NCBI GenBank assembly: GCA_024762875.1
Contig: JANTGR010000002.1
Location: 191 to 64,190 of the forward strand
Direction of reading: 5' to 3'
Length of the DNA: 64,000 nt
Source of the DNA: Sulfurospirillum sp.
Lineage (GTDB): Bacteria; Campylobacterota; Campylobacteria; Campylobacterales; QNZT01
The notes beneath the pieces are model-generated. The model did no database searches. It saw nothing but the letters and a program-made list of their open reading frames with translations, and was not told the DNA's origin. A program made the translations under genes and the position numbers. Shown one piece after another: positions 2,104 to 62,948 of this stretch. Numbering within the stretch: position 1 is the stretch's first letter; every line of letters starts with the position of its first letter.

Positions 2104-3173
2104 ACTTCTTTTAATACCTCTATATATTGGTTAATGGTAGCGGATGGTGAAAAAAGTGCTGCCACTTTTGCTTGATTGGCTTTACATAAATCTGCGATAA
2201 TACTATTTTCTTCTCCTGCATGATTTTTAAAGTTTTCAAAGGTATCGATAAAAATATCTTTTTCCTTATAGATGGGATCAATGAATGTATCATGATAGAG
2301 ATAGGTATGGTTTTGCGCATAGCATGATGCGGGCAGTCCTGAATTGTTTTGAGCAGAAAGAATGATCGATTTATCCGCTATTTTGTATAGCAGGGCATGC
2401 TGCTTTGCTGTGATCAGTACTTCAATGAGAAGATAGTCAAAATTTTTTTCTTCAAGCAGTGCTTTGACGGCTTTTCTCTCTTGCAGGTTATGTGCGTTGA
2501 GATAAAAGATAAAAGTGCTTTGGCGCAGTCTCTCTTGCGGAAGTGTCAGCAGTTCTTCTATAAAAGCCAGTTGTTTAGCCAGTGCGCCCTGCAGGTGGAC
2601 ATAGGTAATTTCTTTGTCCAAATCAAATCCCATGGCATAAGAAGCTTTGAAAATATCTTCTTGTGTGATTTTATCTATTGCATCAAATAAGGGGATACCG
2701 TCATAGATCAGACGGCTTTTTTGTGCATAGTGATCCATGAGCGCATTTTTGTGGGAATTAAAGAGCAAAAATCTTGCTTTATTGTAGAGATAGCTGTAAA
2801 AAGGCTTTAGCAGTAAAGAGGGTGTATCATGATAACCGCAAGTGATAAAGTAGTCATAACATTTTTCACGGATTTCATCAACGATAAAAAGGGCTGACTG
2901 TTCACATTCGTACAGATCGATGATATCATAGTCCTCAAGCGAACGAACCATTTTTTTGCGTTTGTAGATACGATTTAAGAGTCTGAGTCTGGCAGTGGAT
3001 TTTTCTAAAAATTCCAGTTTGCTGGCAGGTTCGAGATCAGCTGTCTCATCTCCCTTTTTGAGCTTGTACTCTAGCAGGGAGAGTGTAGATACTTCTGCAT
3101 TGTGTGCCTCTAGCTGTTTGACCTTCTCTTTGAGTGCCTTGTCAAACCGGGTATAAAGAAAGAGTATTTTCAT
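2100..3173 (-). CDS. Hypothetical protein (357 aa), no recognisable motif; 4-nt overlap with tatD suggests co-translation
   Basis: Long ORF with coding-like composition. Its stop overlaps the tatD start. I recognise no signature. Confidence 0.6.
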   Translation of the reverse strand: MKILFLYTRFDKALKEKVKQLEAHNAEVSTLSLLEYKLKKGDETADLEPASKLEFLEKSTARLRLLNRIYKRKKMVRSLEDYDIIDLYECEQSALFIVDEIREKCYDYFITCGYHDTPSLLLKPFYSYLYNKARFLLFNSHKNALMDHYAQKSRLIYDGIPLFDAIDKITQEDIFKASYAMGFDLDKEITYVHLQGALAKQLAFIEELLTLPQERLRQSTFIFYLNAHNLQERKAVKALLEEKNFDYLLIEVLITAKQHALLYKIADKSIILSAQNNSGLPASCYAQNHTYLYHDTFIDPIYKEKDIFIDTFENFKNHAGEENSIIADLCKANQAKVAALFSPSATINQYIEVLKEV

Positions 3174-3195
3174 AAATTAGTGGTATCATATCAGC

Positions 3196-3399
3196 TTAGT
3201 CGATGACAAACGATATCTTGGCCGTGATTCTGTACTTGGATATTTTATTGTCTGTGACTTTGGCACTTTTTTCCTGGATATAGATTGACTTGATATTTCT
3301 GACTGATTTTGAGGCTTCTGTGATCGCATTTTGTGCTGCATCTTCCCAACTTTTGTCTGATTGTGCTAAAACTTCAATTACTTTAACTACTTTTGCCAT
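3196..3399 (-). CDS. Dodecin-family flavin-binding protein
   Basis: 67 aa. The pattern VKVIEVLAQSDKSWEDAAQNAITEASKSVRNIKSIYI...YRITAKISF matches the dodecin fold family as I recall it. Confidence 0.75.
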   Translation of the reverse strand: MAKVVKVIEVLAQSDKSWEDAAQNAITEASKSVRNIKSIYIQEKSAKVTDNKISKYRITAKISFVID

Positions 3400-3555
3400 T
3401 TTTATTCCTTTGGTAAAATTTTGTTCTACATTATACTATAATTTTTATTCTAATACTATCATGATAGCTTAATAAAATAGTTGGAACATATTGTGCTAAA
3501 GAAATGAATATATTGTATAGGCTGAGCATACGATATCATAAAAGGAGAAATATTG

Positions 3556-5871
3556 ATGCATAAAATGTCCAGATTTTTTGTCTCTAAAAACTTTATCAAT
3601 GGACTTTTTATCGTACTTTTCATTTTTTTATGTACCATTTTGATACTCGAAATAAACAAAAATGTAACACTATACGAAAGTGACAAATATAAAGACATCA
3701 GTAATTTATTTACAACGATTGAACACTCCCTTGATGATAAAATTCATACAATCACCTATCTGCATACTGCTGCAGAGAATTGGCTGGAGAATCCGCCAGC
3801 AAATTGTCATAGGTTGACATCTACTGTTGATAGCGTGCCTGAAAAAGATTATTTTGCGATTGATGAGCGGTATCCTAAAAGTTTTGATGCGTTATATCGC
3901 AGTAATCTAACAGGATATGCAGATTTAAAAAAGATTGACGCAGATGAGATCTGTATGGCACTCTCGCTCAATCCGCTTTTTTATGATATCAGTACAGGCA
4001 TAAAAGATATCGCCTGGGTCTATTATACTTCCAAAAAAGGTTTTATTAATCTTTTTCCCTATGTGGATTCTGATAATTTCCACCTGCAAAAAAAGGATAT
4101 GGATAAAGAGTGTTATACCTATGGACTGCCGCAGTATAATCCCGACAAATCCTATTATATGACACCTTTATATGAAGATGCCGGAGGGTTGGGGCTGATG
4201 ATCAGTATCGGGATGCCTGTCTATCATGATAGCCTGTTTCGTGGTGTGGTTGCTTTTGATATGACGATAGAACATCTTACCAATCTGCTTTCACCAATCA
4301 AAGATTTCAGAGGCTCTGCTTTGATTAAAAACAGACAGGGACAAGTTTTGGCTGCATATAATATTGATGGATTTAAGTATGATAAAATCACACCTTTGGA
4401 AAGCTTGGTGGATATCAATATTCTGGATAAATCAAAGGTGAAAAATGGTTTTTCTGAGTATGATGGAAAGTTGATTTACCATCAAAAGTTTCACAATGCC
4501 CCTTGGGAATTTGTCTATTTTACCGATAAAGCGGATATGTATCAGACTGTTTTTAAGAATTTGATTCCTTTGCTGCTGATATTTTTCTTTTTAGCTGTAG
4601 TGAGAATATTGGTCAATAAGCTTTTTGTGGCACAAAGTGCCTTGACAAAGTTGAATGCAAAACTAAAAGAGAAGGTCAAAGCCAAAAGCAAAGAAGTGGT
4701 TTATCAAAGATATAATTATGAGATGCTTTTTGAACAGTCCAGTGTAGGGATTTGTCTATTGAAAGAGGCACGTATTTTAGAGTGCAATAAAACACTGGCC
4801 AGGATGTTTGGCTATCAGTCAAAAGAGTCACTGCTGGGACATTTTATCCTGGCTTTTTCCCCAAAAATACAACCAAGCGGTATTTCCTCTTTAAAAGAGG
4901 CACGACAGATACAGCGCGATTTTATAGAACAAAAAAGTCATGCTTTTGAGTGGCAGTTTAAGCGCAAAAACGGTGAACTGTTTTGGGCTGATATATCCTC
5001 AAATATCATCAATATAAAAGGTGAAAAAATCATCCAGGTTATCTGCAAGGATATCAGTATGAGAAAAACCCTTGAAAAAGAGAATAAAATACAGACCAAC
5101 CAGCTCATAAAACAATCCAAACTCGCACAGATGGGTGAGATGCTGAGTATGATATCCCATCAGTGGCGACAGCCTCTGGGCTCAATATCGATGGTGATGA
5201 TGGGGTTGCAGATGAAAATTGAGATGGGTAAATTACCAAGAGGCAGTGAAGAAGAGGCTGCAAAAAGTGATGCAGTGATTTTGGAATATGTCGAAAAAGT
5301 GAACAAATATGTGCAGTTTCTCTCCAGTACAATTGATGATTTTAAAAACTTCTTTCAGCCACAAAAAGAGTACAGGGTTTTTGATATCAACAGCCTGATC
5401 AATGAAGCAATCACTCTCATCGCTCCGACGCTGCAATCCAAATCGATCATGATCGAAAAAAACTATCGTGCCCAGGAGGCAGTAGAGAGTTATGAAAATG
5501 AAATCAAACAGGTTATTTTAAATATCCTCAACAATGCCAAAGATGCCATGGTTGAAAACCAAAGTGAAAATGCGACTATCATGATAAGTACCTATACCCT
5601 CAAACATACCTGCATGATAGAGATTACTGATACTGGCGGCGGTATCAGGAGTGAAGATATGCCAAAGATATTTGACCCTTATTTTTCTACCAAATCAAAA
5701 AATGGAACCGGCCTGGGACTGTACATGAGTAAAATGATTATTGAAGAACACTGCAAAGGGAAACTGGATGTCAAAAATAAAGACAAAGGTGCCTCTTTTA
5801 CAATCTCTTTGCCGCTGATGCCGGCAGTGATGCCAGACGCCAGGAACGCTTCTATCGCTCTAAAAGTGTAG
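3556..5871 (+). CDS. Sensor histidine kinase with N-terminal TM, periplasmic Cache-like domain, second TM, PAS domain, H-box SHQWRQPL and HATPase_c
   Basis: ORF 3553..5871. ATG at 3556 lies 8 nt after AAAGGAG. H-box MISHQWRQPLGSI and G-boxes DTGGGI and GTGLGLYMS. No adjacent response regulator. Confidence 0.85.
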   Translation: MHKMSRFFVSKNFINGLFIVLFIFLCTILILEINKNVTLYESDKYKDISNLFTTIEHSLDDKIHTITYLHTAAENWLENPPANCHRLTSTVDSVPEKDYFAIDERYPKSFDALYRSNLTGYADLKKIDADEICMALSLNPLFYDISTGIKDIAWVYYTSKKGFINLFPYVDSDNFHLQKKDMDKECYTYGLPQYNPDKSYYMTPLYEDAGGLGLMISIGMPVYHDSLFRGVVAFDMTIEHLTNLLSPIKDFRGSALIKNRQGQVLAAYNIDGFKYDKITPLESLVDINILDKSKVKNGFSEYDGKLIYHQKFHNAPWEFVYFTDKADMYQTVFKNLIPLLLIFFFLAVVRILVNKLFVAQSALTKLNAKLKEKVKAKSKEVVYQRYNYEMLFEQSSVGICLLKEARILECNKTLARMFGYQSKESLLGHFILAFSPKIQPSGISSLKEARQIQRDFIEQKSHAFEWQFKRKNGELFWADISSNIINIKGEKIIQVICKDISMRKTLEKENKIQTNQLIKQSKLAQMGEMLSMISHQWRQPLGSISMVMMGLQMKIEMGKLPRGSEEEAAKSDAVILEYVEKVNKYVQFLSSTIDDFKNFFQPQKEYRVFDINSLINEAITLIAPTLQSKSIMIEKNYRAQEAVESYENEIKQVILNILNNAKDAMVENQSENATIMISTYTLKHTCMIEITDTGGGIRSEDMPKIFDPYFSTKSKNGTGLGLYMSKMIIEEHCKGKLDVKNKDKGASFTISLPLMPAVMPDARNASIALKV

Positions 5872-7378: not shown

Positions 7379-8274
7379 TTGCTTCCCCAGTGCAGTTTTT
7401 GTTTCAAGACATCAAAATAGTTTCGCTCTTCTCTGTGGATCATTCTAACACCGCGTGCAGCTGTTTTGATAGTAATATCATCAAAAAATTTGAGATTGTA
7501 GATATCCTGTCCATCTACAACGATGATCGTCTCATCCTCACTTTGAAAGGCTACTTCAAAATTTGCCGGCAAAACCATCGGGCGCTCTGTGAGCGAGTGC
7601 GGACAAATGGGTGTCAAAATCAGTGCTTCTGTGAGTGGAAAGATAATGGGCCCGTTGGCAGAAAGATTGTAGGCAGTAGAACCGGTAGGCGTCGAGATAA
7701 TCAAACCATCCCCGCGATAGCGATTCAGATGTTTACGTTTCATACCGGCATCTGTTGAAGTGACATAGGCATCAACATCAATCATACCTTCAATAGAAGG
7801 GCGTGACAGTACGATGTCATTGAGGGCAATGATCTTTTTGGTCCCTGTAGCACCATGCAGTTCTACTTCCAGGACCATCCGGGTATCGATGCGATAGGTC
7901 CCTTGAAATAGTTTATCGATAAAACTCTCTATTTCATCCAGTTTGATATCCGTTAAGAACCCTAGATTGCCGGCATTGATACCTAAAATAGGCTTATCAT
8001 GATAGTAAGAGCGGCGAGAAAGAGAAAGCAGTGTCCCATCACCGCCAAAAGAGATCAAAATATCACTCTCTTCAAATAACTTTTCCCGGGGAATTCCACC
8101 CTCAAGACCGATCATTTCTGCACTGTTTTTTGCGATGAGCAAGGTGACATGATGCTTATCCAGTGCTTTTTTGAGTACAGTATAGTAGGGCTTGAGATGT
8201 TTGGAATCCGGGCGTATGACCAGACCGGCTGTTTGTATGGTGCTGAGTTTTTCATCGTCAAATATAAAATGCAT
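7375..8274 (-). CDS. nadK: NAD(+) kinase
   Basis: 299 aa with GGDGTLL and NAGNLGFLT motifs. Confidence 0.9.
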   Translation of the reverse strand: MHFIFDDEKLSTIQTAGLVIRPDSKHLKPYYTVLKKALDKHHVTLLIAKNSAEMIGLEGGIPREKLFEESDILISFGGDGTLLSLSRRSYYHDKPILGINAGNLGFLTDIKLDEIESFIDKLFQGTYRIDTRMVLEVELHGATGTKKIIALNDIVLSRPSIEGMIDVDAYVTSTDAGMKRKHLNRYRGDGLIISTPTGSTAYNLSANGPIIFPLTEALILTPICPHSLTERPMVLPANFEVAFQSEDETIIVVDGQDIYNLKFFDDITIKTAARGVRMIHREERNYFDVLKQKLHWGSN

Positions 8275-8359
8275 AAAGATATGTTACTTTTTTTTTGATT
8301 AAAAGCAGGAAAATAGTGTGGTGCATTTTAACAAATAGACGCTAGAGACTTATCATGAT

Positions 8360-8448
8360 AAAGTGTTGTATATTTTACTTATTCACTAAGATTGCACTGT
8401 AAAACGGCTGCAGAGTCATGCACAACTAGACATTGTTTAGAACACTTT
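8360..8448 (+). repeat. REP/MITE-like intergenic element, copy A (degenerate arms)
   Basis: Core TTCACTAAGATTGCACTGTAAAACGGCTGCAGAGTCATGCAC (8382-8423) is about 85% identical to the cores at 27518-27560 and 30699-30739 (reverse complement). Short flanking inverted repeat AAAGTGTT / AACACTTT. Confidence 0.7.
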
Positions 8449-10294: not shown

Positions 10295-10864
10295 ATGAAA
10301 AAACTATTTTTAATTATCGGAGCACCGGGAAGCGGTAAAACAACAGATGCAGAGTTAATCGCCCAAAAGCATGACAATATTACACACTATTCAACAGGCG
10401 ATATGTTTCGTGCTGAGGTAGCCAGTGGCAGTGAAAGAGGTGCACTGATCAAATCTTTTATTGACAATGGCAATCTTGTGCCAATCGATATCGTGATTGA
10501 GACAATTGTAACAGCTATTAAAGCTTCTCCTACCGATGTTGTTGTGATCGATGGATATCCGCGCAGTATTGAGCAGATGGAAGAATTGGACAAGTATCTT
10601 GCCAATGAAGAGGATGTGACACTTGTGAGTGTTATTGAAGTAGTGGTCAGTGAACAGACAGCACGTGACAGGGTTCTGGGACGTGGACGTGGTGCAGATG
10701 ATAATAACGAAGTGTTTGATAATCGTATGAAAGTTTACATGGATCCTTTGGAAGATATCCAAAAGTTTTATGAAGCAAAAAACATCTTGCATAAAGAAGA
10801 TGGTGAAGGATCGATTGAAGAGATCGTAGCATCGATGGATGCATTTGTACAAAGTAAAATTTAA
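10295..10864 (+). CDS. adk: Adenylate kinase
   Basis: 189 aa with P-loop GAPGSGKTT and a short LID form. Confidence 0.9.
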
Positions 10865-10870
10865 TCTATC

Positions 10871-11629
10871 ATGATAAGCACTCCCAGCTTCTACTCGGTG
10901 ATTGTCGGTACAGAACTGCTCAACGGCAGACGACAGGACAGTCATTTTGGCTTTTTAAACAAAGCCTTGGTACAAAGGGGCTGGGAGCACAAAGCTTCTT
11001 TTGTAATCAAAGATGATCCCCATTTTGTAGAAGATATATTTAGCTTGATTCAAGCTGATAAAAATGCAGTCATGTTTTCATTTGGGGGCATTGGTTCGAC
11101 GCCTGATGATTTTACGAGAGAAGTTGCCGCACGGGCATTTACCCATAGACCTTTACAGCGGCACAAAGAAGCAGAAGAGATTATCACTGCCCGTTTGGGT
11201 GAAAAGGCCTATCCTCATCCAATCAAGATGGCAGATTTACCAGACAATGCAGAGTTGATAGCAAACCCAGTCAATAAAATGCCGGGATTTTCACTACAAA
11301 AGAAATTCTTTTTTTTACCGGGATTCCCCGAAATGGCACATCCGATGATTGAGGCTATTTTAGAAGAGCACTACCCCAAAGCCCCACAAAAATACAGCTG
11401 TAATTTTATGGTTGAAGCCAGTGAAGCATTGCTCATAGATATCATGGATGCTTTGCCTTCTCAGATAGAGTTGTCCTGTTTGCCTTCATTTGCAGGAGAA
11501 AAAAGAAGGGCGGAGATATATTTGGCCGATATAGATAAACAGCGTTTAGAAAAATGGTGTCAATTTTTTAAAGATAAGTTAGTAAAATCACAATTAAAAT
11601 TTAAGGAGATAGAGAATGTTAGTAGATAA
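10871..11629 (+). CDS. Molybdopterin-binding (MoCF_BD / CinA N-terminal-like) domain protein
   Basis: 252 aa with VIVGTELLNGRRQD and GGIGSTPDDFT motifs of the MoaB/Mog/CinA-N family. Confidence 0.7.
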   Translation: MISTPSFYSVIVGTELLNGRRQDSHFGFLNKALVQRGWEHKASFVIKDDPHFVEDIFSLIQADKNAVMFSFGGIGSTPDDFTREVAARAFTHRPLQRHKEAEEIITARLGEKAYPHPIKMADLPDNAELIANPVNKMPGFSLQKKFFFLPGFPEMAHPMIEAILEEHYPKAPQKYSCNFMVEASEALLIDIMDALPSQIELSCLPSFAGEKRRAEIYLADIDKQRLEKWCQFFKDKLVKSQLKFKEIENVSR

Positions 11630-18309: not shown

Positions 18310-18337
18310 TATCATGATAATAGACGTTATCATGATA
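18310..18337. repeat. Two copies of the iterated palindrome TATCATGATA, 18 bp apart, in the pyrH-rpoZ intergenic spacer
   Basis: GCTATCATGATAATAGACGTTATCATGATAGAT read directly from the sequence. Confidence 0.9.
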
Positions 18338-18342
18338 GATTT

Positions 18343-19068
<726 letters not shown>

Positions 19069-27073: not shown

Positions 27074-27090
27074 AGCTTACCTTTTGTCTA

Positions 27091-42214: not shown

Positions 42215-42247
42215 AGTTTTTCCTCTCTATCATGATAGTGTCGTTTA

Positions 42248-43207: not shown

Positions 43208-43217
43208 CAATGCTTCT

Positions 43218-46058
43218 TTATAGTGCACCAACAGTATGCGCAGCGGCCACTGTGAGTGAAATTTTATAGAAAATATCAGCTATATCTTTGGTGATATCCA
43301 TACCCCTGGTATCAAAATAGTACTGTTTTGGCACGACGATAACATCTCCTTTTTGTATCTCTACATCATTGGAAGAGAAGAGAAATGAGCCTAGATCCGC
43401 TTTTCTGGCTTCTCCGTTGGCATGAATCACATAGATATGTTCACTATCAGCCAGGTGGGTCAACCCGCCACTGCTTCTAATATAAGTGTTAATGTTATCA
43501 CCTTTATACGTCAGTGCTGAAGGCTGCATCACTTCTCCATTCACAATGATAGTATCATTAAATGATGGTATATCCAATGTGTCTTGATCTTTTAGGACAA
43601 GATTACTCGGACTTTGTTTAAAAGCTTCTAAATCATCTTCCAAATTGATCGTAATTCTACCTTTTGGCTTTACTTTTTTTGCCTCTTTGATCAGGGAATC
43701 GACAGCAGCAACAATTCCACCTATATCAGCGGGTTGTTTTTTTCTGTCAGAACTGTTTCGTACATTGATCAAGATCACCTGCTCTTTTAGTTTGGAGAGT
43801 TCATTGTGCAGACTCTCTTTTTGCAGCTTTTGTACATCTTTTCGCGTAAAGACGGAACCATATAAAAAGGCTTCTTTGGTAAATCCTCCGGCACGTTTGA
43901 TAACCGAATCCAGTTTTTCACCTGAATGGATGACATATGTCCCGGGGAATTTCACTTCTCCACTCAGGGTGACAGTTTGTCTGTCATACCAGTTTGGAAT
44001 ACGTTTGATAGTGATTTGATCATGTTGCTGTATTAAAAAGCTTGCTGCTTTATCAAGGGCTACTTTGAATATCTTCTTTTTTCTTTCACCATTTTCCAGG
44101 TGATAACGGATGATTTCACACTCTTTAGGATAGGCTTTTTCACTCAAACCGCCGGCACTCTCTATAAAATCCATCAGATTCATGGCATCAGAAACTTCAT
44201 AAGATCCTGATTTCACTACTTCTCCACTGATAGTGGCTGTTTGCAGGGGATGGGTTGCATTGATATTAAATAGTGTTACAGCATCTCTCTCATGCAGTGC
44301 AAACTCAGGCGTGTTTTCCATGTTGATGATATTTACTGAGGATATACCTTCATTATTCTGTTTGGAAACAATTTTTACTTTTTCCTGATCATAAGGTGAT
44401 TTGACACCAGCCTGATTGATCAAATCTGAAATAGTCATTCCCTCATGAAAGATGTACTTGCCTTCTTTAATCAAGGGGTCTCCACTGATAGTGACAAAGG
44501 GTGCTGTACCCGTATCGAGTGTATTAAAAACATAGAGTTCATCTCGATTTTCCAGTAAAAAATCTTCCTGTCCGTCTAAAACATTTTGCAAATTGACATG
44601 AAATATTTTGGTCTGTAAATCTTCACCTATACGTTTGATCATCGCATAATCAAAACGTGTGTCTTCCAGGAAAAAGGAATTGAGTTTATCTCCTTTGATT
44701 TCATTGTGCAGCAGTGTAGAGAGACGCATACCGTTTTGGCTGAATTCCCGTTTGCCTTCACGCACAACATTACCGGTTATGAGGATGTAGTTGTCATTGG
44801 TGATATTGAGCCCATCTACATAGATTTCATCACCATCTTTGAGTTTAAAGCGTCTGGCCTCCTGCATGGTAAGAGTGAGGTTTTGAATCTCTGTATTGCG
44901 GCTGTAGCGCTTGATCTGGATACTGTAGCCATCAGCCTGTGCTTTAAGACCACCGGCAAATCTTAATATATGTGCCAGGCTCTCTCCCGCTTCTATCTCA
45001 TAGATCGCTTCTTTATAAACAGCACCTTCTATAGAAACCAGGCCATGAGCACGGGGTACATAGATGGTGTCATTGGGTTTGAGAACCAGGTCACCATGGG
45101 TCAAACCCTTTGCAAGAAGGTGGTAGTAGTCTATATTGGCAATGACTTTGCCATCTCTTTTGACATAGATATCACGTACCGAACCGATATCGCCTACGCC
45201 ATGTGCTTCTATAAGGATATCTTTTACGCTGGAGACAGAGGTGGTATTATAAATTCCCGGAGCATTAACGAATCCGGTGACCGTGACCTGTGCATTGGAA
45301 AAAGCATCGAGATTGACAACAACTTTTGAGTTTTTGTAAGAACTTGAGAGGTAATTGGTCAGTAACTCTTTTACATCAGCAAACCTCTCTCCGGCAACAC
45401 GAACCGGCCCCACCTCAGGGATATCGATATTGCCTTCATTGTTAATGACAAGGGAAAAATTCTTTTCATTTTTCCCATAAATCCAGAAAGTAAGTTCGTC
45501 ACCACGGGACAAAGTGTAATCTTTTGGAGTGGAGATATTTTTTTGTGCTATTTTATTTTTATTTCTGAAAAACTCATTTGAAAAACGTTTTAGTCTTTTG
45601 TGCTCTCTTAATGTCTGTGCTGATTTTATTCTTTTGATGATGGCATTTTCACTTTTATATTGCAGGGGAGTGAGTCTGAGTGAGCCATCTTGCAACATGT
45701 TTTCATCTTTTGTTTTTTGGATCAAAAGATTTTCATCCGTTTTTTGTGTTTCAGCAAGTGAGTCATTTTTGCCTGTCATTGAAAATGAGTCATCTCGCAT
45801 ATTTTCATCATTGTAACTTTCATCAGATGCAGACATGTCAGATGTATTTGAGATATTGTTTTCAACTTGTGGAAGATTTGCTTTTGATTCTTTTGGGCTT
45901 TTTCCCTGAGGATTCTGTTTGGACATATAAGCTTGTGCCTGCGGACTGTTTAGCAGTGCGGGATTTTGGGAAACCATTTGTGCGATTTGCTCCTGCGAGA
46001 GAGCATGCGCGGCAACAGCAGTCAAAAGCAGTGCCAGGATAAGAACGACATTTTTCAT
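43218..46058 (-). CDS. Large Wza-like polysaccharide export protein (Poly_export + multiple SLBB repeats)
   Basis: 946 aa with signal peptide, a low-complexity acidic region, the motif YTLSRGDELTFWIYG, then repeated SLBB-like modules. Confidence 0.8.
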   Translation of the reverse strand: MKNVVLILALLLTAVAAHALSQEQIAQMVSQNPALLNSPQAQAYMSKQNPQGKSPKESKANLPQVENNISNTSDMSASDESYNDENMRDDSFSMTGKNDSLAETQKTDENLLIQKTKDENMLQDGSLRLTPLQYKSENAIIKRIKSAQTLREHKRLKRFSNEFFRNKNKIAQKNISTPKDYTLSRGDELTFWIYGKNEKNFSLVINNEGNIDIPEVGPVRVAGERFADVKELLTNYLSSSYKNSKVVVNLDAFSNAQVTVTGFVNAPGIYNTTSVSSVKDILIEAHGVGDIGSVRDIYVKRDGKVIANIDYYHLLAKGLTHGDLVLKPNDTIYVPRAHGLVSIEGAVYKEAIYEIEAGESLAHILRFAGGLKAQADGYSIQIKRYSRNTEIQNLTLTMQEARRFKLKDGDEIYVDGLNITNDNYILITGNVVREGKREFSQNGMRLSTLLHNEIKGDKLNSFFLEDTRFDYAMIKRIGEDLQTKIFHVNLQNVLDGQEDFLLENRDELYVFNTLDTGTAPFVTISGDPLIKEGKYIFHEGMTISDLINQAGVKSPYDQEKVKIVSKQNNEGISSVNIINMENTPEFALHERDAVTLFNINATHPLQTATISGEVVKSGSYEVSDAMNLMDFIESAGGLSEKAYPKECEIIRYHLENGERKKKIFKVALDKAASFLIQQHDQITIKRIPNWYDRQTVTLSGEVKFPGTYVIHSGEKLDSVIKRAGGFTKEAFLYGSVFTRKDVQKLQKESLHNELSKLKEQVILINVRNSSDRKKQPADIGGIVAAVDSLIKEAKKVKPKGRITINLEDDLEAFKQSPSNLVLKDQDTLDIPSFNDTIIVNGEVMQPSALTYKGDNINTYIRSSGGLTHLADSEHIYVIHANGEARKADLGSFLFSSNDVEIQKGDVIVVPKQYYFDTRGMDITKDIADIFYKISLTVAAAHTVGAL

Positions 46059-48413: not shown

Positions 48414-49901
48414 CTATTTCTCCTCATCTTTATCATGATAGTTGTTTATTTTGTATGTATGCTCTTTGAGCCAATACAGACACATTCTCACACCGGCACC
48501 ACTGGCACCTGACTGATTATATCCCCACTCTTTTTCGATAAATGCAGGACCTGCGATATCAAGGTGCAGCCATTTGTCTTTGACTGTATCTGTAACAAAG
48601 TTGTCTAAAAAAAGTCCGGCAGTGATAGCCCCGCCATAACGGGAAGCAGCGATATTGGAAATATCAGCTATATCACTTTTTATCAGTTTTTTCAAATAGC
48701 GGTTAAAAGGAAGTGTGGCACTGAGTTCTCCACTTTTATCTGCAGCACTCAGCATCTCATCTTTGAGCGCACTGTTATGTCCCATGATGCCCGTAGTATA
48801 TTCTCCCACAGCGACTACACAGGCACCGGTGAGTGTCGCCATATCAACAAGATAGTCAGGCTCCAGCTCACAGGCATAACAGAGACAATCAGCCAATACC
48901 AGGCGTCCTTCAGCATCTGTGTTGCGTACTTCTATGGTGACACCATTTTTAGCAACAAGCACATCATCCGGTTTGTAAGCATTGCCACCGATCATGTTTT
49001 CACAGCTGCCGATGATAGTATGTACTTCAAATGGCACTTGTAGCTGGGCTGCTCCTTTGAGAATAGCCAGCGCTGCAGCAGAGCCGCTTTTGTCAGATTT
49101 CATACTGACCATATGTTCACTTGGTTTGAGGCTGAGCCCGCCGCTGTCATAAGTCAATCCTTTTCCTACAAAGACAAATTTTTCTTTTGCATCTTTTGGT
49201 TTGTAGGTAAGATGAATAAATCGCGGTTTATGCGCACTTGCCCTGGCTACGGCAGCAAATGCACCCATCTTTTGCTCTTCTAAAAAGTGTTCATCTCCTA
49301 TAAAACAGGTAACATTATCTAAAGTATCTGCCAGTTTCTGTGCTTCATTTGCCAGTGCTTCAGGTGTCATATCATCAGGAACAGCATTGACAACATCTTT
49401 TGCCAAATTGGCTGCTTGGGCAATGATCGTTGCTTCATCCAGAGCATTTTGAGCAGATTCCAGTTTCAGCTCTTTATCATGATACTCTTCCAGTGACAGG
49501 ATGAGTTCTCTTTGGATTTTAGTCTCTTTTTTCGACTTGTAGCGATCAAAGCTATAGTCACCCAAAAGGGCACCTTCAACAATCGCTTTTGTATAAATTG
49601 CCGGGCAGGTTTTGACGTAGGAGCCTATTTTGATTGTTTTGTAGTTGGTGTTTTTGATTGCTTTGAGTGCTGCAGCGACTGCCAGTCTGATCTCATCACG
49701 ATCGAGTGAATCGGCACCGGCATAGACTCTATGCTGATGTGGTAAAAAAGCACTTTCTTCACTTTTTGCTTCAAAGTTCAGTGTGCTTAAATCTGTTTGG
49801 TCTTTGACCCATTTGTGCTTTAGTTGTTGATTGATGATGAGAACTATCTCACAATCAGCATGAATGGCATCAAGTTTTTTGGGTGTTACTGTGATTTTCA
49901 T
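48414..49901 (-). CDS. pepA: Leucyl aminopeptidase (M17)
   Basis: 495 aa with the NTDAEGRL motif. Confidence 0.9.
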   Translation of the reverse strand: MKITVTPKKLDAIHADCEIVLIINQQLKHKWVKDQTDLSTLNFEAKSEESAFLPHQHRVYAGADSLDRDEIRLAVAAALKAIKNTNYKTIKIGSYVKTCPAIYTKAIVEGALLGDYSFDRYKSKKETKIQRELILSLEEYHDKELKLESAQNALDEATIIAQAANLAKDVVNAVPDDMTPEALANEAQKLADTLDNVTCFIGDEHFLEEQKMGAFAAVARASAHKPRFIHLTYKPKDAKEKFVFVGKGLTYDSGGLSLKPSEHMVSMKSDKSGSAAALAILKGAAQLQVPFEVHTIIGSCENMIGGNAYKPDDVLVAKNGVTIEVRNTDAEGRLVLADCLCYACELEPDYLVDMATLTGACVVAVGEYTTGIMGHNSALKDEMLSAADKSGELSATLPFNRYLKKLIKSDIADISNIAASRYGGAITAGLFLDNFVTDTVKDKWLHLDIAGPAFIEKEWGYNQSGASGAGVRMCLYWLKEHTYKINNYHDKDEEK

Positions 49902-52111: not shown

Positions 52112-52540
52112 CTAAAGCTCTATCTTCTCCACTCTGTCAGCGTGTCTTCCACCTTCAAAATTATAGTGACACCAACTCTCACAAATAGACTCTATCACGC
52201 CCAGCCCGACAACACGCTGCCCAAAACAAAGGACATTGGCATCATTGTGCTCTCGTGCCATCTGTGCTGTGTAAGCATCATGACAGAGTGCTGCCCGGAT
52301 GCCATGGTGCTTGTTAGCAGCCAGACTCATTCCGATGCCGGTACCGCAGATCAACACGCCTTGACTGCCTTCATCTGCCAAAACCTGTGTGCAAAGTTTG
52401 TGTGCAAAATCAGGGTAATCTACACGGGAATCATTCTCCGGTCCCAAATCTATCACTTCATTTCCTAAATCTGTCAATATTTTTTTTACATCCTCTTTGA
52501 TGCAAAATGCCGCATGATCCGTTGCAATATATAGTTTCAT
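52112..52540 (-). CDS. rpiB: Ribose-5-phosphate isomerase B
   Basis: ORF 52112..52585. The internal Met gives MKLYIATDHAAF, the usual RpiB start. Motif ICGTGIGMS. Confidence 0.85.
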   Translation of the reverse strand: MKLYIATDHAAFCIKEDVKKILTDLGNEVIDLGPENDSRVDYPDFAHKLCTQVLADEGSQGVLICGTGIGMSLAANKHHGIRAALCHDAYTAQMAREHNDANVLCFGQRVVGLGVIESICESWCHYNFEGGRHADRVEKIEL

Positions 52541-52640
52541 ATTTAAACCTAATGGTAAGTTGTGTGATATTATATCCAATTGCAAATGAAAGTTATCATG
52601 ATAAGTTGATTGTTAGCTATTTACAGCGCATCAAATAAAA

Positions 52641-52977
52641 AGGCATAGCGATAAGCCGAGTTCTGTCGTGGATGATTATTTATCTCTAAATTATCTTACG
52701 ATAATCCTCTAGCGAAGTGCGAAATTATAAGAGTTATACCATACACTTCTTGCTGCAGATTGGGTTTACCTAGCTGGTAAGATTGCTCAAACCACTGGTG
52801 AGCTCTTACCTCACCCTTTCACCGTGACTCCCGATTTCTTTCATGAAAATCGATAAGCCGTCTTCTCTCTGTTGCACTGGCCCTCAGGTTGCCCTGGCCA
52901 TCTGTTAGATGGAATCCTCTCTTATAGCAGCCCGGACTTTCCTCTATCATGATAGATAGCAATCATCTACTATGCCT
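52641..52977 (-). ncRNA. rnpB: RNase P RNA, bacterial type A
   Basis: The minus-strand read contains GAGGAAAGUCCGGGCU, GGUGAAAGGGUGAGGUAAGAGCUCACCAG, AGGUAAACCCAA and ACAGAACUCGGCUUAUCG. P1 pairing is GGCAUAG (5') with CUAUGCC (3'). Confidence 0.9.
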
Positions 52978-53011: not shown

Positions 53012-54889
53012 TCAAGCGCTTTTTTTCTTTTGGTCTATCTTGATGTAAATGTGCAGGATATCAATTGCTGCTGGGGTGACTCCTTGTATCTCTGAGGCAG
53101 CAAAGAGGGTTGGTGGATTGATTTTTTCAAATTTTTCGATGATTTCATGACTGAGACCGCTGACTTTTTTAAAGTCAAAATTAGATGGAATTTTAATATT
53201 GATATAGTTTTTCATCTTATCGATCTGCTCTTGCTGTTTTTTGATATAGTTGGCATATTTTGCCTCTATCATGATAAGTTCTTTACTGGCAATATCAAAC
53301 TCTTTTGTCTGGGGTACAAGTATCTCAAGTGTTTGGGTAGTACATTCTGGGCGGGCAATGATACTTTTGAGGTTGACTTTGTCAGCAATCTTTTTTTGAT
53401 AAAGTGAAGCTAAAAGTGCGTTATTCTCTTTAGAAGGTGTCATAAAGTTGTTCTCAAGAAAGAGCAGTGTTTCTTTGAGGTTTTTCTCTTTTTGCATCAT
53501 TTTTTCATAAGCTGTTTTCTGCACCAAACCCAAATCATAGCCATATCCTCTCAGTCTGATATCGGCATTGTCCTCACGTAAAAGCAGGCGAAATTCTGCA
53601 CGGGAAGTAAACATACGATAAGGCTCTTTGGTGCCTTTTGTGACCAAATCATCAATCAATACACCAATATAGGCTTCATCACGGCGAAGAATCAGCGGCT
53701 CTTTTTCATCTATGGCTAAAACAGCATTGATACCTGCCATCAGACCCTGGGCGGCGGCTTCTTCATAACCTGTTGTACCGTTGATCTGGCCTGCCATGTA
53801 CAGCCCGGCTATTTTTTTGGTTTCAAGGGTATGCTTTAGTTCTGTAGGGTTGATATAGTCGTACTCGATGGCATAGCCATAACGGACAATTTTAGCATTT
53901 TCCATCCCTTTTATAGAGTGAATGATATCACGTTGTACATCTACAGGCAGAGACGTTGTCAACCCATTGATATAGTATTCTGTCGCTTCAATAGTCTGTG
54001 GTTCGATAAAAAGATGGTGCCGTTCTTTGTCTGCAAAACGGTTGACCTTGTCCTCGATACTAGGACAGTAACGTGGTCCTATACCCTCTATCTGCCCGGT
54101 AAACATGGGCGCACGGTAAAAGTTGTCCGCGATGATCGAATGTGTGTCAACATTGGTATATGTGATAAAACAGGGTAATTGTGTTGGTGAAAAATGTTCT
54201 TTGTCACTTTCAAATGAGAAAGGAAGAGGTGTGGTATCACCACCTTGTTCTTCCATCACGGAAAAATCGATACTTTTTGCATCTATACGGGGACAGGTAC
54301 CTGTTTTGAGCCGTCCGATGTCCAATCCCAGGGATTTGATACTTTCACTCAGTTCATAAGAGGCAAATTCTCCCTGTCTCCCGGCTTTTTGTTTTTTATC
54401 ACCTATATGAATGAGCCCGGCAAGAAAAGTACCTGAAGTGATAATGATTTTTTGTGCAAAATAATGGTTGCCAAGCTGTGTGATGACACCCTTGACGCAG
54501 TTATCTTCTACGATCAATTCATCAGCAATCTCCTGTTTGATGGTGAGATTGGGAGTATTTAGACAAATATCACGCATATACATGGCGTAACGATCCATAT
54601 CAATTTGAGCACGGCTGCCGCGTACTGCAGGTCCTTTGGAAGCGTTGAGGATACGAAACTGTATGCCTGTGGCATCTGTTGCTTTTCCCATCTCACCGCC
54701 CAGTGCATCCACTTCTTTGACCAGATGTCCTTTGGCAAGACCACCAATGGCAGGATTACAGGATGCAGCACCGATACGCTCTACCAGTATCGTCACAAGG
54801 AGTGTTTTTTTACCCATTCTCGCACTGGCCAGTGACGCTTCTATCCCGGCATGCCCACCGCCGATAACAATAACATCAAAATCTATCAT
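53012..54889 (-). CDS. mnmG: tRNA uridine-5-carboxymethylaminomethyl synthesis enzyme MnmG (GidA)
   Basis: 625 aa with FAD motif [13 protein letters not shown]. Confidence 0.95.
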
Positions 54890-54974
54890 GATAACCCTAA
54901 ATCTATATTTTTAAAGCATTATAACAAATAAAGGTTAAGCAGGGTTTATCTTGGTATGGCGCTTTCTAGTGAAA

Positions 54975-56723: not shown

Positions 56724-56787
56724 AATTTCCCGCTCACACATTTTCTTATAGTGAATATCGGCAATTATGAAAATAGTTGAAGCATTT

Positions 56788-59413: not shown

Positions 59414-59478
59414 CTAAGAGATCCTTTTATATGGTGAACAGTTTTAAAAGAGATTATAACATAAAGATGGGAGAAATA

Positions 59479-60183
59479 ATGAATAAAAAAGTGTTGACGT
59501 TACTAATGAGCATACTTTTGGCAGTAGGCAGTTTTGCTTATACCAACTATCATGATAAGTATAAGAGAGTGAACAAAGTCTCTACAGAAAATCTGTTGGC
59601 GATCTCCTGGCAAAATGCTTTTTGCCAAATGCATCAAAATAAAAGAGAGTGCCGCAATGTCAAACCCACCGCTTATGCTGCATCACATTTTACGCTGCAT
59701 GGTTTATGGCCGCAGCCTAGAAACAATGTAAATTGTCAAGGAAACCCTAAAGTGAGACTTGACAAAGCGCTTTACCAGGAATTATTAGTTGTGATGCCTG
59801 CGGCAAAAAGTGGTTTGCAAAATCATGAATGGAAAAAACACGGTACCTGTTATGGCAAAAAAGCCGATGCCTATTTTGAAGATTCCATTGCGCTGGTAAA
59901 ACAGATCAACGCTTCTGCAGTCAGGGAACTGTTTAAGCGCAATGTTGGCCGTCAGCTTAGTAAAAAAAATGTTATGCTGGCATTTGATAAAGCGTTTGGT
60001 AAAGGAGCTGGCAGAAAAGTCAAGATGATGTGCAAAAAAGGACTGATTACTGAATTGCAGATCAATTTAGAGGGCAAGATTGACCCGGAGACTAATCTAA
60101 AAGAGTTATTAAAGGGGGCAAAAAACGCACGAGGAGGATGTATGAAGGGTAGAGTAGATGCTGTAGGATTTGGCAGGAAGTAG
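59479..60183 (+). CDS. Secreted ribonuclease T2-family protein (RNase I-like)
   Basis: ORF 59431..60183. The ATG at 59479 after GGGAGA gives a signal peptide MNKKVLTLLMSILLAVGSFA. Catalytic motifs FTLHGLWPQ and HEWKKHGTC. Confidence 0.85.
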   Translation: MNKKVLTLLMSILLAVGSFAYTNYHDKYKRVNKVSTENLLAISWQNAFCQMHQNKRECRNVKPTAYAASHFTLHGLWPQPRNNVNCQGNPKVRLDKALYQELLVVMPAAKSGLQNHEWKKHGTCYGKKADAYFEDSIALVKQINASAVRELFKRNVGRQLSKKNVMLAFDKAFGKGAGRKVKMMCKKGLITELQINLEGKIDPETNLKELLKGAKNARGGCMKGRVDAVGFGRK

Positions 60184-60199
60184 GGGAATACCCTGTTTT

Positions 60200-61315
60200 T
60201 TATGCTGTGATAGTATGCAGCAGCTCTTCCAAAAGGACTGTTGCATACGAGCCTTTTGGTAAAGAAAAGTTCAGTTCTACCTGCCACTCATCTTCTTTAT
60301 AGGCTATCTCCAGATCTTCTGCCCAGATCCATGCAAAACGTCTTGTTCCGTTCATCTGAGACTCAAACTGCTGGGCTTCTTTGGAAAAATCTTTTTCAAA
60401 ATTGGCAGCGATACCCGTTGCATGTGTCGCTTTTTTACCGGCAAGCAGTCCTGTGACGGTGATATCTTTCTCAAAAAACCGCTGTGCTTCTGCTGCTAAA
60501 TCTTCACAGATGAAAATCCGTCCGTGCGGGTAGTGGTGCATCAGCTCACCGGGCAGCATTTTGAAAAAATGAGGCTGATTTTTCACTTGCCTAATCGTTT
60601 CGATTGGAAAATTAAAAAGTGTATCTAGCTCTTTCTCATCAAATGAATCAAAAAGTTTGGAAATTTCTACACGCTTAGAGAGCCAAAGATTAAAAAGGTG
60701 ACTTTGATAGGCTGAGATAAAAAACTTTTTCATTTTTTTATTGCGCTCTTTGATTTCACCGTTTAGTACTTTTTTGGCATGTTCATAATTATCTCCATCT
60801 TTGCCAAAACGCTGATAGCCAAAATAGTTGGGAAAGCCCAGTTTCTTGATCGATTTGACTGCTTCTTTGAGCTTTTTGGCGTCAGTAGGATTGACTTTTT
60901 TGAGGCGGATGAAAAAGTGGTTGCCTTTTAGATGGCCGATTTTGAGTTTGTTTTTGTGATAGGTTTTATGTATGATTTTGATCTTATCATGATGGAAGTT
61001 CTCCAGGGTGGACTCTTTGTTTTTGGGCATAGAGATAAACTGCACGGTCATTCCCTCTTTGTCTTTCAGCCCTGCATATCCAAAGTCACGCTCTTTGACA
61101 CCGGTAAGACCTGAGAGATATTTGAGCATTTGCCAGGTTGTCATATCTTTTTTACGGATTTGTAAAATGAGATGTTCCCCTTCACCTGTGAACTCATATA
61201 AAGGAATTTCACTGACAACAAAGTCTTTACTGTTTTTAGCAAAGTGCGCAGATATAGGTGCATGGTTGAGGTAAAAGAGTCTATTCAAAATGATTTTCCT
61301 GACACACCGTTTCAT
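60200..61315 (-). CDS. truD: tRNA pseudouridine(13) synthase TruD
   Basis: ORF 60200..61339. YLNHAPISAHFAKNSKDFVVSEIPLYEFTGEGEHL and YAGLKDK motifs. Start uncertain: ATG at 61315 or TTG at 61288, both overlapping the thiL end. Confidence 0.8.
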   Translation of the reverse strand: MKRCVRKIILNRLFYLNHAPISAHFAKNSKDFVVSEIPLYEFTGEGEHLILQIRKKDMTTWQMLKYLSGLTGVKERDFGYAGLKDKEGMTVQFISMPKNKESTLENFHHDKIKIIHKTYHKNKLKIGHLKGNHFFIRLKKVNPTDAKKLKEAVKSIKKLGFPNYFGYQRFGKDGDNYEHAKKVLNGEIKERNKKMKKFFISAYQSHLFNLWLSKRVEISKLFDSFDEKELDTLFNFPIETIRQVKNQPHFFKMLPGELMHHYPHGRIFICEDLAAEAQRFFEKDITVTGLLAGKKATHATGIAANFEKDFSKEAQQFESQMNGTRRFAWIWAEDLEIAYKEDEWQVELNFSLPKGSYATVLLEELLHTITA

Positions 61316-62105
61316 AAGCACCATCGGTAACTTTTGCAAAAAAGGTGATTTGAGTATTGTTTTCTTGTGCTATTTGCATAATTGTATCACAATCTTTTTC
61401 TTTGCAGGAAAAAAGGACTTCATACTCTTCCCCCGAACATAAAATAGCCTCATCCATGTTACTAAAAAACGCAAAGCCTTTTTTATTCATACTTGAAAGT
61501 CGTGATAAATCTTTACTCAGGCCATCGGATATATCCATCGCTGTGGTGAAGTATGGCGCAGCTGCGTAGAAAAAATCTGCTTTTAAATCAGGTGTGATGA
61601 ATTTGGAAGCAGGGGAGATTGTCTCTCCTCGAAAAAGTGTGTCTAAATCTTTTTGAACAGAGCCCAAAGAGCCAGTAAAGCCTACAATGTCATCTATCTT
61701 TAAGCCTGTTCTTCTCACGGGATTGTGCGTATGTGAAATGAGGGTGATAGAGATATCCAACTGATCCCCAGCCACCGTATCGCCACCGATGATTTGAAAG
61801 TCAAACTCTTTGGAAGCTTTTAAAAAGCCATGAGAGAGTGCATCAAGTTCTGCTTTGGCAAAGGTTTTTGGGATTTTGATGCCGATGAGTGCCTGTTTGG
61901 GTCTGGCATTCATTACAATGGCATCAGAGATATTGACCAGCATACTTTTATAAGCGATCTGCTCCAGGCTCATCCAGTCACGTTTAAAGTGGATATCTTC
62001 ACAAAAAAGGTCTTTGGAATAAACCAATTCATCGATAACTGCGCCATCATCTCCGATGTGGGCATCTTTAAAAAGGGAGATGAAGTAGGACTCTTTATCT
62101 ATCAT
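61281..62105 (-). CDS. thiL: Thiamine-monophosphate kinase
   Basis: 274 aa with the HIGDDGAVI motif and AIR-synthase-like fold signatures. Confidence 0.8.
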   Translation of the reverse strand: MIDKESYFISLFKDAHIGDDGAVIDELVYSKDLFCEDIHFKRDWMSLEQIAYKSMLVNISDAIVMNARPKQALIGIKIPKTFAKAELDALSHGFLKASKEFDFQIIGGDTVAGDQLDISITLISHTHNPVRRTGLKIDDIVGFTGSLGSVQKDLDTLFRGETISPASKFITPDLKADFFYAAAPYFTTAMDISDGLSKDLSRLSSMNKKGFAFFSNMDEAILCSGEEYEVLFSCKEKDCDTIMQIAQENNTQITFFAKVTDGAYETVCQENHFE

Positions 62106-62123
62106 GACAGGGTGTGCATATGG

Positions 62124-62948
62124 TTATTGTTCACTTTCACACTTATCTTCCTGTTTGTCGATAGAGAAAAATCCACATCCCTCTTTATCACTGGAACCGT
62201 TGATATTGAAAAGGTCGTCTGTTGTGGGCAAAGGGGTATCTTGTGACTCGGACTCTTTTTGGGAAAATGAATCAATAATCGCTTCATCACCGTTTAGTAT
62301 CTCTACCACCTGATCTTTTTTGACTATCATGATAGGAATGGTGCTAAAGTTTAAAAAAGTGGCAAAATTTTTGGCTTCAGGTGAGTTGATATCAAGCTTG
62401 GTAAAATTGATATCATTTTCTTTAAAATATGTTTTTACTTTTTTACAGTGCGGGCAGGTTGGTGACTGGATAAGGTAGGTGCCGTTTTTGACCACAAAAG
62501 CAGCCGTTTTAGGGATGGCCAAAAAGCTAAGCGCCGTTACCAGTGCCAATACCGCCGAAAGTGCCATCACCGCGTATCGACCAGATGCAGTGATCATGAT
62601 AGCCCATAAAAAAGCATAGACACCCATGCAGAACTTACACATCTCGGGTGAGACAAAGTACTGGTAACCCAGCATGATAGTTTCAAAAAGTAAAGAGACA
62701 AAAAGGACGAGATAAAAAAACTTTTTACTGACTTTATCATGATAACTCAGCCAGCCGAGTATCATGATAAGCAGTGAAACAGCAACGCCGATGTAGTTGA
62801 GATAAAGGCTGTCAAAACGCAGCAGATTATCAGCAAAAAGGCAGCCTGTGGAGTGACAGAGTGAAGAGTGAGAGAGTTTTAATCCCGTCTCTATGGCATT
62901 GTAGAGAAAAAAGAAAATAGGCAAAACGATGAAAGCTATTTTTTGCAT
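62124..62948 (-). CDS. VKOR-like membrane protein fused to a glutaredoxin/NrdH-like CPHC domain
   Basis: 274 aa with about 5 TM helices. Loop cysteines CHSTGC, membrane CKFC, then SPTCPHCKKVKTYF...TIPIMIVK (Grx fold with cis-Pro) and an acidic Cys-containing tail. Confidence 0.65.
   Translation of the reverse strand: MQKIAFIVLPIFFFLYNAIETGLKLSHSSLCHSTGCLFADNLLRFDSLYLNYIGVAVSLLIMILGWLSYHDKVSKKFFYLVLFVSLLFETIMLGYQYFVSPEMCKFCMGVYAFLWAIMITASGRYAVMALSAVLALVTALSFLAIPKTAAFVVKNGTYLIQSPTCPHCKKVKTYFKENDINFTKLDINSPEAKNFATFLNFSTIPIMIVKKDQVVEILNGDEAIIDSFSQKESESQDTPLPTTDDLFNINGSSDKEGCGFFSIDKQEDKCESEQ

Follow-up and report, generated by a model that had tools for sequence, protein, structure and literature searches.

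A hyper-abundant DNA palindrome and its Tyr-His-Asp and Ile-Met-Ile imprint in an uncultured Campylobacterales genome

Copies of the palindrome in the window and in the genome

The subject of this study is a 10-mer palindrome, TATCATGATA, which recurs along a 64-kb stretch of contig JANTGR010000002.1. This whole stretch, which was the DNA analysed, is called the window and the 10-mer is called the word; the full form of the word is a 12-bp palindrome, YTATCATGATAR, i.e. Y-TATCATGATA-R. The window comes from a draft assembly, here G000, of 2.28 Mb in 213 contigs (N50 17.9 kb, 39 % G+C), in which a simple codon-usage model called 2293 genes covering 92 % of the genome. The only named relatives of the MnmG protein encoded in the window are metagenome-assembled genomes labelled Campylobacterales, Epsilonproteobacteria or Sulfurospirillaceae, at 71-75 % identity, and the host lineage is an uncultured member of the Campylobacterales. 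Two congeners (G001 and G002, with G000 forming genus g1) and one genome of a sister genus in the same family (G004, genus g3) were used for the closest comparisons.

The window contains 36 exact copies of the word, as counted in an earlier note made from the sequence, while 100 dinucleotide-preserving shuffles gave an expectation of 0.11 and a maximum of 2. Inside long open reading frames (ORFs) lie 25 of the 36 copies in full, 13 of them read as TAT-CAT-GAT (Tyr-His-Asp, YHD) and 12 as ATC-ATG-ATA (Ile-Met-Ile, IMI). This division was reproduced from the earlier note, and so were all the peptide contexts it listed, proteins and neighbouring residues included. The range of 2288-62769 which it gave for the copies holds for 35 of them, but the 36th, at 63094-63103, lies beyond that end. 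The other 11 of the 36 copies are not inside a coding sequence (CDS). The third frame, TA-TCA-TGA-TA, had been described as never used; inside CDSs it is indeed empty, but at gene ends its TGA serves as a stop codon. As the emptiness inside CDSs follows from the TGA itself, it is no biological evidence. The copies are as follows, with the encoded residues in brackets.

2288 to 2297: YHD (LYHDTF) in the 357-aa ORF 2100-3173 (minus strand); G000 only
2825 to 2834: YHD (GYHDTP) in ORF 2100-3173 (minus strand); G000 only
3457 to 3466: non-coding, in the spacer that precedes the kinase gene 3553-5871 (plus strand)
4222 to 4231: YHD (VYHDSL) in the kinase; G002 has TATCATAATA, with one mismatch
5577 to 5586: IMI (TIMIST) in the kinase; shared with G002
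7995 to 8004: YHD (YYHDKP) in nadK; CATCATGATA (HHD) in G001 and G002, A/K/S-Y-D/N/K outside the genus
8351 to 8360: non-coding, in the divergent spacer between nadK (minus strand) and ORF 8508 (plus strand)
10867 to 10876 (plus strand): its ATG at 10871 is the start of ORF 10871-11629; 3 nt past the stop of ORF 10295-10864
18310 to 18319 and 18328 to 18337 (minus strand): a pair of words, 5 nt past the stop of gene 18343-19053 (minus strand); kept in G002 with another loop
20291 to 20300: IMI (VIMIGS) in an EnvC-like gene; exact in G001, one mismatch in G002
25272 to 25281: IMI (IIMISF) in rodA; G000 only, relatives have I-I/V-G/A/S-I/L
25638 to 25647: IMI (FIMIPF) in rodA; relatives have Y-I-L/I-I/L-P, one mismatch in G002
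27089 to 27098 (minus strand): its TGA (27093-27091) ends the thioesterase ORF 27091-27474 (minus strand)
27367 to 27376: IMI (SIMIAD) in the thioesterase; also in G001 and G002
30287 to 30296: IMI (AIMINA) in flgB; relatives have I/V/M-M-I/V/F/Y
32783 to 32792: YHD (SYHDSV) in murG; genus-wide (three genomes), lacking in 25 other orthologues
33002 to 33011: YHD (FYHDNK) in murG; within the genus only
33304 to 33313: IMI (SIMIEK) in murG; within the genus only
33674 to 33683: YHD (HYHDKP) in a TlpA-like gene; shared with G002, relatives have L-K/L-N/D/K/G
37774 to 37783: YHD (GYHDIH) in bioF; G000 only, the sole site of the window at a well-conserved column
38191 to 38200: YHD (SYHDII) in bioF; shared with G002
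39134 to 39143: IMI (AIMILL) in an ABC protein; shared with G002
39394 to 39403: IMI (IIMIAA) in the N-terminal membrane segment of PBP1A; G000 only
42228 to 42237: non-coding, in the 33-nt spacer between the stop of 42248-43231 (minus strand) and the start of 41312-42214 (minus strand)
48431 to 48440: YHD (NYHDKD) in pepA, in its variable C-terminal tail; also in G001 and G002
49475 to 49484: YHD (EYHDKE) in pepA; genus-wide, relatives have Y-x-E/D
52594 to 52603: non-coding, 9 nt upstream of the start of ORF 52112-52585 (minus strand); kept in G002
52945 to 52954: non-coding, 58 nt downstream of the mnmG stop; matched by a copy in the equivalent position of G002
53267 to 53276: IMI (LIMIEA) in mnmG; in 14 of 15 clusters at 85 % identity or more
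54884 to 54893 (minus strand): its ATG is the start of mnmG, 53012-54889 (minus strand)
59548 to 59557: YHD (NYHDKY) in an RNase T2 gene; G000 only
62325 to 62334: IMI (PIMIVK) in a VKOR-like gene; shared with G002
62735 to 62744: YHD (SYHDKV) in the VKOR-like gene; G000 only
62760 to 62769: IMI (LIMILG) in the VKOR-like gene; shared with G002
63094 to 63103: non-coding, in the spacer upstream of the VKOR-like gene

Across G000 the word occurs 1028 times in 2.28 Mb, about once per 2.2 kb. It tops the palindromic 10-mers of this genome, and among all 10-mers only its own extension ATCATGATAG ranks higher. The congeners have 1236 and 1549 copies, and 38 other genomes of the family and order 0-93 each, the value of 93 belonging to a bin with 6 % contamination. 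The word is thus a hyper-abundant perfect palindrome, present in genes and spacers alike. Its information content is limited to the 12 bp, the flanks beyond being uninformative: position -1 is C in 53 % and T in 34 % of the copies, and position +1 is the mirror image. Single-base variants at the inner six to eight positions number 2-23 each against the 1028 perfect copies, and the outer positions vary mainly by transitions (65-97 copies). The CATG tetramer is slightly depleted in G000 (8660 observed, 10095 expected). Distances between copies are near Poisson, with a coefficient of variation of 1.06 and a dispersion of 0.97 for 5-kb bins; even spacing, clustering and word-free islands were looked for in G000 and not found, the longest word-free stretch being at most 12 kb. 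No literature was found on this word, nor on any such word in Campylobacterales, and the matches to the word string were chance ones.

The tripeptide imprint

By context, the copies in G000 comprise 464 IMI, 294 YHD, 159 intergenic ones, 84 on start codons and 46 on stop codons, with 21 copies supplying start and stop together via an ATGA overlap. About 26 % lie outside the interior of CDSs and 74 % inside CDSs. The near-equal split of 13 to 12 seen in the window reflects local sampling, IMI being the more frequent reading genome-wide.

The earlier note had proposed comparing proteome-wide frequencies of the two tripeptides with expectation. The G000 proteome contains 400 YHD, where amino-acid frequencies predict 36 (11-fold), and 543 IMI, where they predict 108 (5-fold); these are the two most over-represented tripeptides of all. 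Of the IMI occurrences 468 (86 %) are spelled ATC ATG ATA preceded by T. ATC and ATA account for 45 % and 24 % of Ile codons, respectively, and codon usage would predict only a few percent of IMI in the word spelling. For YHD, 297 of 400 (74 %) are spelled TAT CAT GAT followed by A. With the controls used by Findlay and Redfield, YHD reaches 0.573 per 1000 amino acids, compared to 0.065 for the reversed tripeptide DHY and 0.055 for YHD in other genera of the family (~110,000 residues), and IMI 0.78 compared to 0.10 per 1000 residues, so that the two stand about 8-10-fold above the relatives. At least one YHD or IMI is found in 681 of the 2293 proteins (30 %), and approximately 3 % of the Met codons and 2 % of the His codons of G000 lie inside the word.

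The dominance of one spelling is decisive: the imprint is almost certainly a by-product of the DNA word and has its origin at the DNA level. The suggestion of the earlier note that the force acts on the DNA word, with the peptides being accommodated, is borne out by the spelling, the copies outside CDSs, the orthologue columns, the controls and the imprint of the sister genus. That YHD and IMI would instead be selected at the protein level as peptide motifs is hardly credible. IMI-like residues are already present at the flgB and mnmG columns in some relatives, but this reading was rejected on the near-exclusive single spelling, the derivation of two unrelated peptides from one word, the ~26 % of copies outside CDSs, the absence of the tripeptides at 20 of 22 columns outside the genus, the preference of the sites for poorly conserved columns and the peptides of the sister genus, which follow its own word.

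A tripeptide imprint left by an abundant DNA word is already published for the uptake signal sequences (USS) of Pasteurellaceae and the DNA uptake sequences (DUS) of Neisseriaceae, in which the encoded tripeptides are enriched 1.8-2.7-fold in three species (PMC2817400). Unlike these, the word described here gives enrichments of about 8-11-fold for YHD and 5-8-fold for IMI, and the imprint is therefore several times stronger than in Haemophilus and Neisseria. This strength, and the pair of palindromic and asymmetric dialects described below, are what is noteworthy here.

Persistence of the word and filtering by proteins

For the 25 coding sites of the window, alignments were made with the orthologues of the two congeners and of as many as 25 further genomes, found by genome searches; the earlier note had also proposed such a comparison. 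Outside the genus 22 columns were testable, the kinase having no orthologue there and the thioesterase alignments being weak. None of the orthologues outside the genus has YHD at the 13 YHD columns. IMI is found outside the genus only in flgB (2 of 11 relatives) and mnmG (1 of 3, and a few more distant clusters), always in a spelling other than that of the word. The tripeptide is thus common to outside relatives at only 2 of the 22 columns, and the 10-mer at none of those testable. The sites are often found where the word was partly pre-encoded, as at a conserved Tyr (murG, pepA, nadK) or I-x-I (rodA, mnmG); in flgB, where relatives already have the residues listed above, the word needed mostly synonymous changes. 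Most coding sites align without insertion or deletion, and the words therefore arose by base substitution.

This last result bears on whether the copies might be footprints of mobile elements, either a TA duplication with TCA...TGA termini, as in a mariner/IS630 excision scar, or a tiny miniature inverted-repeat transposable element (MITE). TA-TCA-TGA-TA does have the form of an excision scar, and a MITE inserted at TA sits at 30881-31154 of the window. However, an 8-bp scar would shift the reading frame and most coding copies align without such a change, so the scar was rejected for them; a repetitive extragenic palindromic element or MITE was rejected since there is no conservation beyond 12 bp and 74 % of the copies lie inside CDSs; and the terminal repeat of the MITE, TTAAGGGTACC..., is unrelated to the word. 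We regard a mobile-element origin as one that can practically be set aside. The element itself is a 274-bp MITE-like sequence with 27-bp terminal inverted repeats (TTAAGGGTACC...), upstream of ftsW.

Once present, the word is kept far better than the surrounding sequence. G000 and G002 share 73.4 % DNA identity over 30 orthologous window genes. Of the word sites in these genes 12 are common to the two genomes, four are in G000 only and six in G002 only (67-75 % conserved), compared to 6.7 % of control 10-mers identical between the two. In the window, 15 of the 25 coding sites have an exact counterpart in one congener or both, three others have one with a single mismatch, and at least 4 of the 11 non-coding copies are kept in G002. 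All six constituent codons are better kept inside the word than elsewhere, e.g. ATA 0.92 versus 0.34 and ATC 0.83 versus 0.49, though the numbers are small. In the 357-aa ORF the word of G000 is in the YHD frame (LYHDTFID), and in G001 and G002 it is found 8 nt downstream in the IMI frame (LYGDIMID). A similar displacement, by 49 nt, was seen in the RNase T2 gene. These displaced copies may represent local replacement of lost ones, but by a rough binomial estimate the effect is not significant.

The sites are not evenly distributed with respect to protein conservation. Over 21 sites, the word columns are less conserved than the rest of the same proteins (0.536 compared to 0.665, Mann-Whitney p = 5e-5), and 20 of the 21 lie below the median column conservation. 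The word density falls 2.6-fold with codon bias, from 0.555 per kb in the quintile of least biased genes to 0.214 per kb in that of the most biased. Uptake sequences likewise prefer poorly conserved positions and weakly biased genes (PMC2817400). Protein constraint thus decides where the word can sit. The one copy at a well-conserved column, GYHDIH in bioF, displaces a Pro (YHP) which is kept in 5 of 6 orthologues from other genera and in G002, and this shows a real cost to the protein. At the mnmG column of the IMI copy at 53267, ILV or ILI stands in more distant relatives, and IMI in a few. At the N-terminus of MnmG all 15 clusters at 85 % identity or more start with MI-D/T/A-F/Y-D and distant relatives with M-x-F/Y-D; the word on the start codon has added one residue.

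Gene ends, sister dialects and the maintenance of the word

The density of the word is 0.85 per kb in intergenic regions and 0.36 per kb in CDSs. Spacers between convergent genes have the highest density (2.22 per kb; divergent 0.73, tandem 0.87), and 86 of 150 measured distances from a stop codon to a word are within 30 nt. Copies 13-30 nt apart are about three times as frequent as by chance (28 compared to ~8 expected), and a stop codon lies at most 30 nt before 18 of the 20 intergenic pairs spaced by 13-28 nt. As the word is self-complementary, neighbouring copies pair with one another. On the minus-strand RNA the window pair 18310/18328 is predicted to fold into a hairpin with a stem of 12 bp and a loop of 6 nt (-13.1 kcal/mol, z = -7.3), and there is no U-run after the hairpin at 18310-18337. 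Similar intergenic pairs number 19 genome-wide, e.g. at C1:108654-108680, C4:12072-12099 and C46:12149-12177 of G000. The intergenic pairs are often found between convergent genes and give hairpins of 10-12 bp without a U-run behind them. It may be that the word pairs behind stop codons serve as terminators or as stabilisers of 3' ends. In Neisseria, inverted DUS pairs form hairpins.

The sister genus has a dialect of its own. The word of G004, CTACATGATA, is non-palindromic and equals the word of g1 minus one T in one arm. Its core TACATGATA occurs 400 times in forward and 422 times in reverse orientation in 1.9 Mb, compared to 32 for the reversed control in G004 and ~40 in other genomes. A 132-kb sample of G004 has it as the most frequent 9-mer, at roughly one copy per 1.9 kb; position -1 is C in 61 % of the copies. 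The different word gives a different peptide imprint: the coding copies of G004 read LHD, YHV, YMI and SC instead of YHD and IMI (loci L057 and L168-L177).

Sister lineages were further surveyed in 20-kb samples from 15 relatives. CGATCG, the core of the cyanobacterial highly iterated palindrome HIP1, is 6-7-fold enriched in two genomes of the family (3222 copies in G006 and 3459 in G007), and within a single genus its count can be as low as 50 and as high as 3459. G001 and G002 avoid it, with 61 and 27 copies compared to 209 and 222 for the control. Abundance of CGATCG was noted in G005, G006, G007, G019, G042 and G044, all of the same family.

Such swings are relevant to a neutral explanation, according to which a bias connected with a methyltransferase, very-short-patch-like repair or a mismatch-repair strand signal converts near-matches into the word, which itself would have no function. 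A neutral-process model has been presented for HIP (Elhai 2015, PMC4390886). The word contains CATG and TCATGA, which are typical methyltransferase targets, the one-off variants at its outer positions are mainly transitions, and the range of counts of CGATCG, a hexamer of methylase type, within one genus (50-3459) is what gain and loss of methyltransferases would give. In addition, the three genomes of the genus all have an apparently orphan N6-adenine DNA methyltransferase of the D12 class (G000 C98:4111-5112, PF02086); a motif screen of the G000 gene calls found only this enzyme and a type I HsdM. However, the D12 enzyme is also present in word-poor relatives (G003, G009, G012, G013 and others), CATG is slightly under-represented, and in the motif screen no candidate C5-methyltransferase passed, Vsr not having been searched for. 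A specificity of 12 bp exceeds the known recognition of type II methyltransferases and of Vsr. Depletion of the word in highly codon-biased genes and at conserved columns indicates selection against it, which would still be compatible with a bias as the source. Taken together, we find a purely neutral origin quite improbable.

The D12 gene is located between a SelO-like gene and a transposase and has no obvious restriction partner. Homologues at ~65 % identity occur across Campylobacterales and Flavobacteriia, and PDB, NCBIfam and annotated plasmids gave no indication of the target specificity of the enzyme.

Another explanation is that each copy is a directly selected site for an abundant dimeric DNA-binding protein, acting e.g. 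in nucleoid organisation, segregation or replication, the peptide imprint being a by-product. A perfect 12-bp palindrome suits a homodimer, its inner 6-8 bp are almost invariant (variants 2-23 against 1028), 67-75 % of the sites are kept at 27 % DNA divergence, and its six codons are better kept in the word than elsewhere, a test also used for HIP1 (PMC5861425). Phage contigs, too, hold TATCATGATA-type palindromes in local arrays resembling operators or iterons. However, the spacing of the genomic copies over the 213 contigs is Poisson-like and gives no sign of regular placement, about one third of the sites turn over between congeners, and copies shift by 8 nt and change frame; because of this turnover and these shifts a requirement for density fits better than one for position. 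The word of the sister genus is asymmetric, and no candidate protein was identified. We consider dedicated binding sites an unlikely explanation, although one with several observations on its side.

With regard to the phages, a scan of viral contigs for paired words gave only unrelated local arrays with other flanks. One contig, IMGVR_UViG_3300005573_000082 (L214, L202), has ~23 tandem units of 171 bp, each with an inverted pair TATCATGAYAGACCTCTATCATGATA; its sequence suggests a centromere or an iteron array based on this same word. Two IMG/VR contigs of low GC, 3300020576_002046 and 3300033066_000988 (L200, L204), contain local clusters of GGTATCATGATACC, ~14 copies in 1.7 kb. These share the core but not the flanks, and are probably operator-type sites unrelated to the genome-wide word.

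The word may be compared with three known systems. Transformation of Campylobacter jejuni involves methylation-dependent discrimination of self DNA through CtsM and the motif RAATTY. This organism is of the same order, RAATTY tags transforming DNA as self, and the core of the word is likewise adenine-methylatable. In contrast to the word, with its ~10,000-fold excess over chance, RAATTY is short and methylated and is not known to be hyper-abundant beyond base composition.

The word resembles USS and DUS more closely in form: these are words of 9-12 bases with roughly 1000-2000 copies in genes and spacers, they enrich the encoded tripeptides, and their copies stand at poorly conserved positions (Findlay and Redfield 2009, PMC2817400). 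As in DUS, whose 'AV-stop' frame has 0 copies in ORFs (PMC2817400), the frame containing the stop is empty. Lineage-specific dialects, paired hairpins after genes and the presence of competence genes are further similarities. Unlike USS and DUS, the word is a perfect palindrome, is found in Campylobacterales and has Poisson-like spacing.

With HIP1 (GCGATCGC, cyanobacteria) the word shares being a hyper-abundant palindrome in coding and non-coding DNA that arises by substitution (PMC4390886, PMC5861425). Sites and inner codons are kept beyond controls in both, variant words occur in related lineages, and an apparently orphan methyltransferase is present. HIP1-type palindromes are accompanied by orphan methyltransferases that recognise parts of them, and are distributed periodically on the chromosome (10-90 kb); for the word the spacing was assessed at short range, where it is Poisson-like. 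However, the word has 12 bp instead of 8 bp, a different and AT-rich sequence, and occurs in another phylum, so it is an analogue and not HIP1 itself; moreover, the methyltransferase does not track the word across relatives and the sister variant is non-palindromic. For HIP1, direct selection has been proposed to keep the sites and no evidence was found for a peptide motif (Xu et al. 2018, PMC5861425), and HIP1 boosts transformation in a way that depends on methylation (bioRxiv 10.1101/2024.09.10.611283; PMC13756078).

By analogy with these systems we tentatively favour the view that the word is a recognition signal linked to transformation or recombination, like DUS, USS or HIP1. The preference is based on the density of the word, the genus dialects, one of them asymmetric, the pairs at 3' ends, the conservation of sites between species, the competence genes and the transformation evidence for HIP1. 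The word arises in place by base substitution and settles where proteins tolerate it, i.e. in the two stop-free frames, at weakly conserved columns and in weakly codon-biased genes; start and stop codons carry it too, and its favourite place is immediately downstream of genes. On the favoured view it would act as a self-DNA recognition signal in natural transformation or recombination, and fragments bearing it would be preferentially taken up or recombined, so that word-creating alleles spread, as in the 'molecular drive' of DUS and USS and in the proposal for HIP1. The reader could be a protein contacting CATGATA half-sites. Purifying selection on proteins would then set where the copies survive, and the peptide imprint would result.

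Several points weigh against a transformation- or recombination-linked signal. G000 carries ComEC, DprA and three secretins, but ComEC, DprA and secretins are equally present in word-less relatives (G009), and as the competence genes also occur in word-poor relatives, they discriminate nothing. The proposal was drawn from the sequence of an uncultured organism, in which only generic competence genes were seen; in Neisseria, the minor pilin ComP is a dedicated uptake receptor. The spacing of the copies is near Poisson and not more even than random, whereas USS are reported to be more evenly spaced than random. Classical uptake sequences are non-palindromic, and the known self-DNA recognition in Campylobacter uses a short methylated motif and no long word. 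The conservation of the sites would be equally expected under direct selection on each site. In its most specific form, the favoured view would make YTATCATGATAR a true uptake or recombination specificity signal of a deep-branching genus, composed of two overlapping CATGATA half-sites, possibly methylated at the adenine of CATG, with the asymmetric CTACATGATA as its sister dialect. So specific a version is possible but doubtful.

A short word kept for DNA-level reasons can measurably rewrite a proteome. For annotators, the word explains the recurring YHD and IMI "motifs" and the one-residue MI- extensions of N-termini in this lineage. With a palindrome, an asymmetric dialect and an excess of CGATCG in different genera, the family is a natural comparison for words of the HIP1 and DUS type. 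If the specific form of the uptake or recombination signal were true, the word would be the first long uptake-type word in Campylobacterota and an independent, dialect-bearing counterpart of HIP1, and it could help to settle the function of such words.

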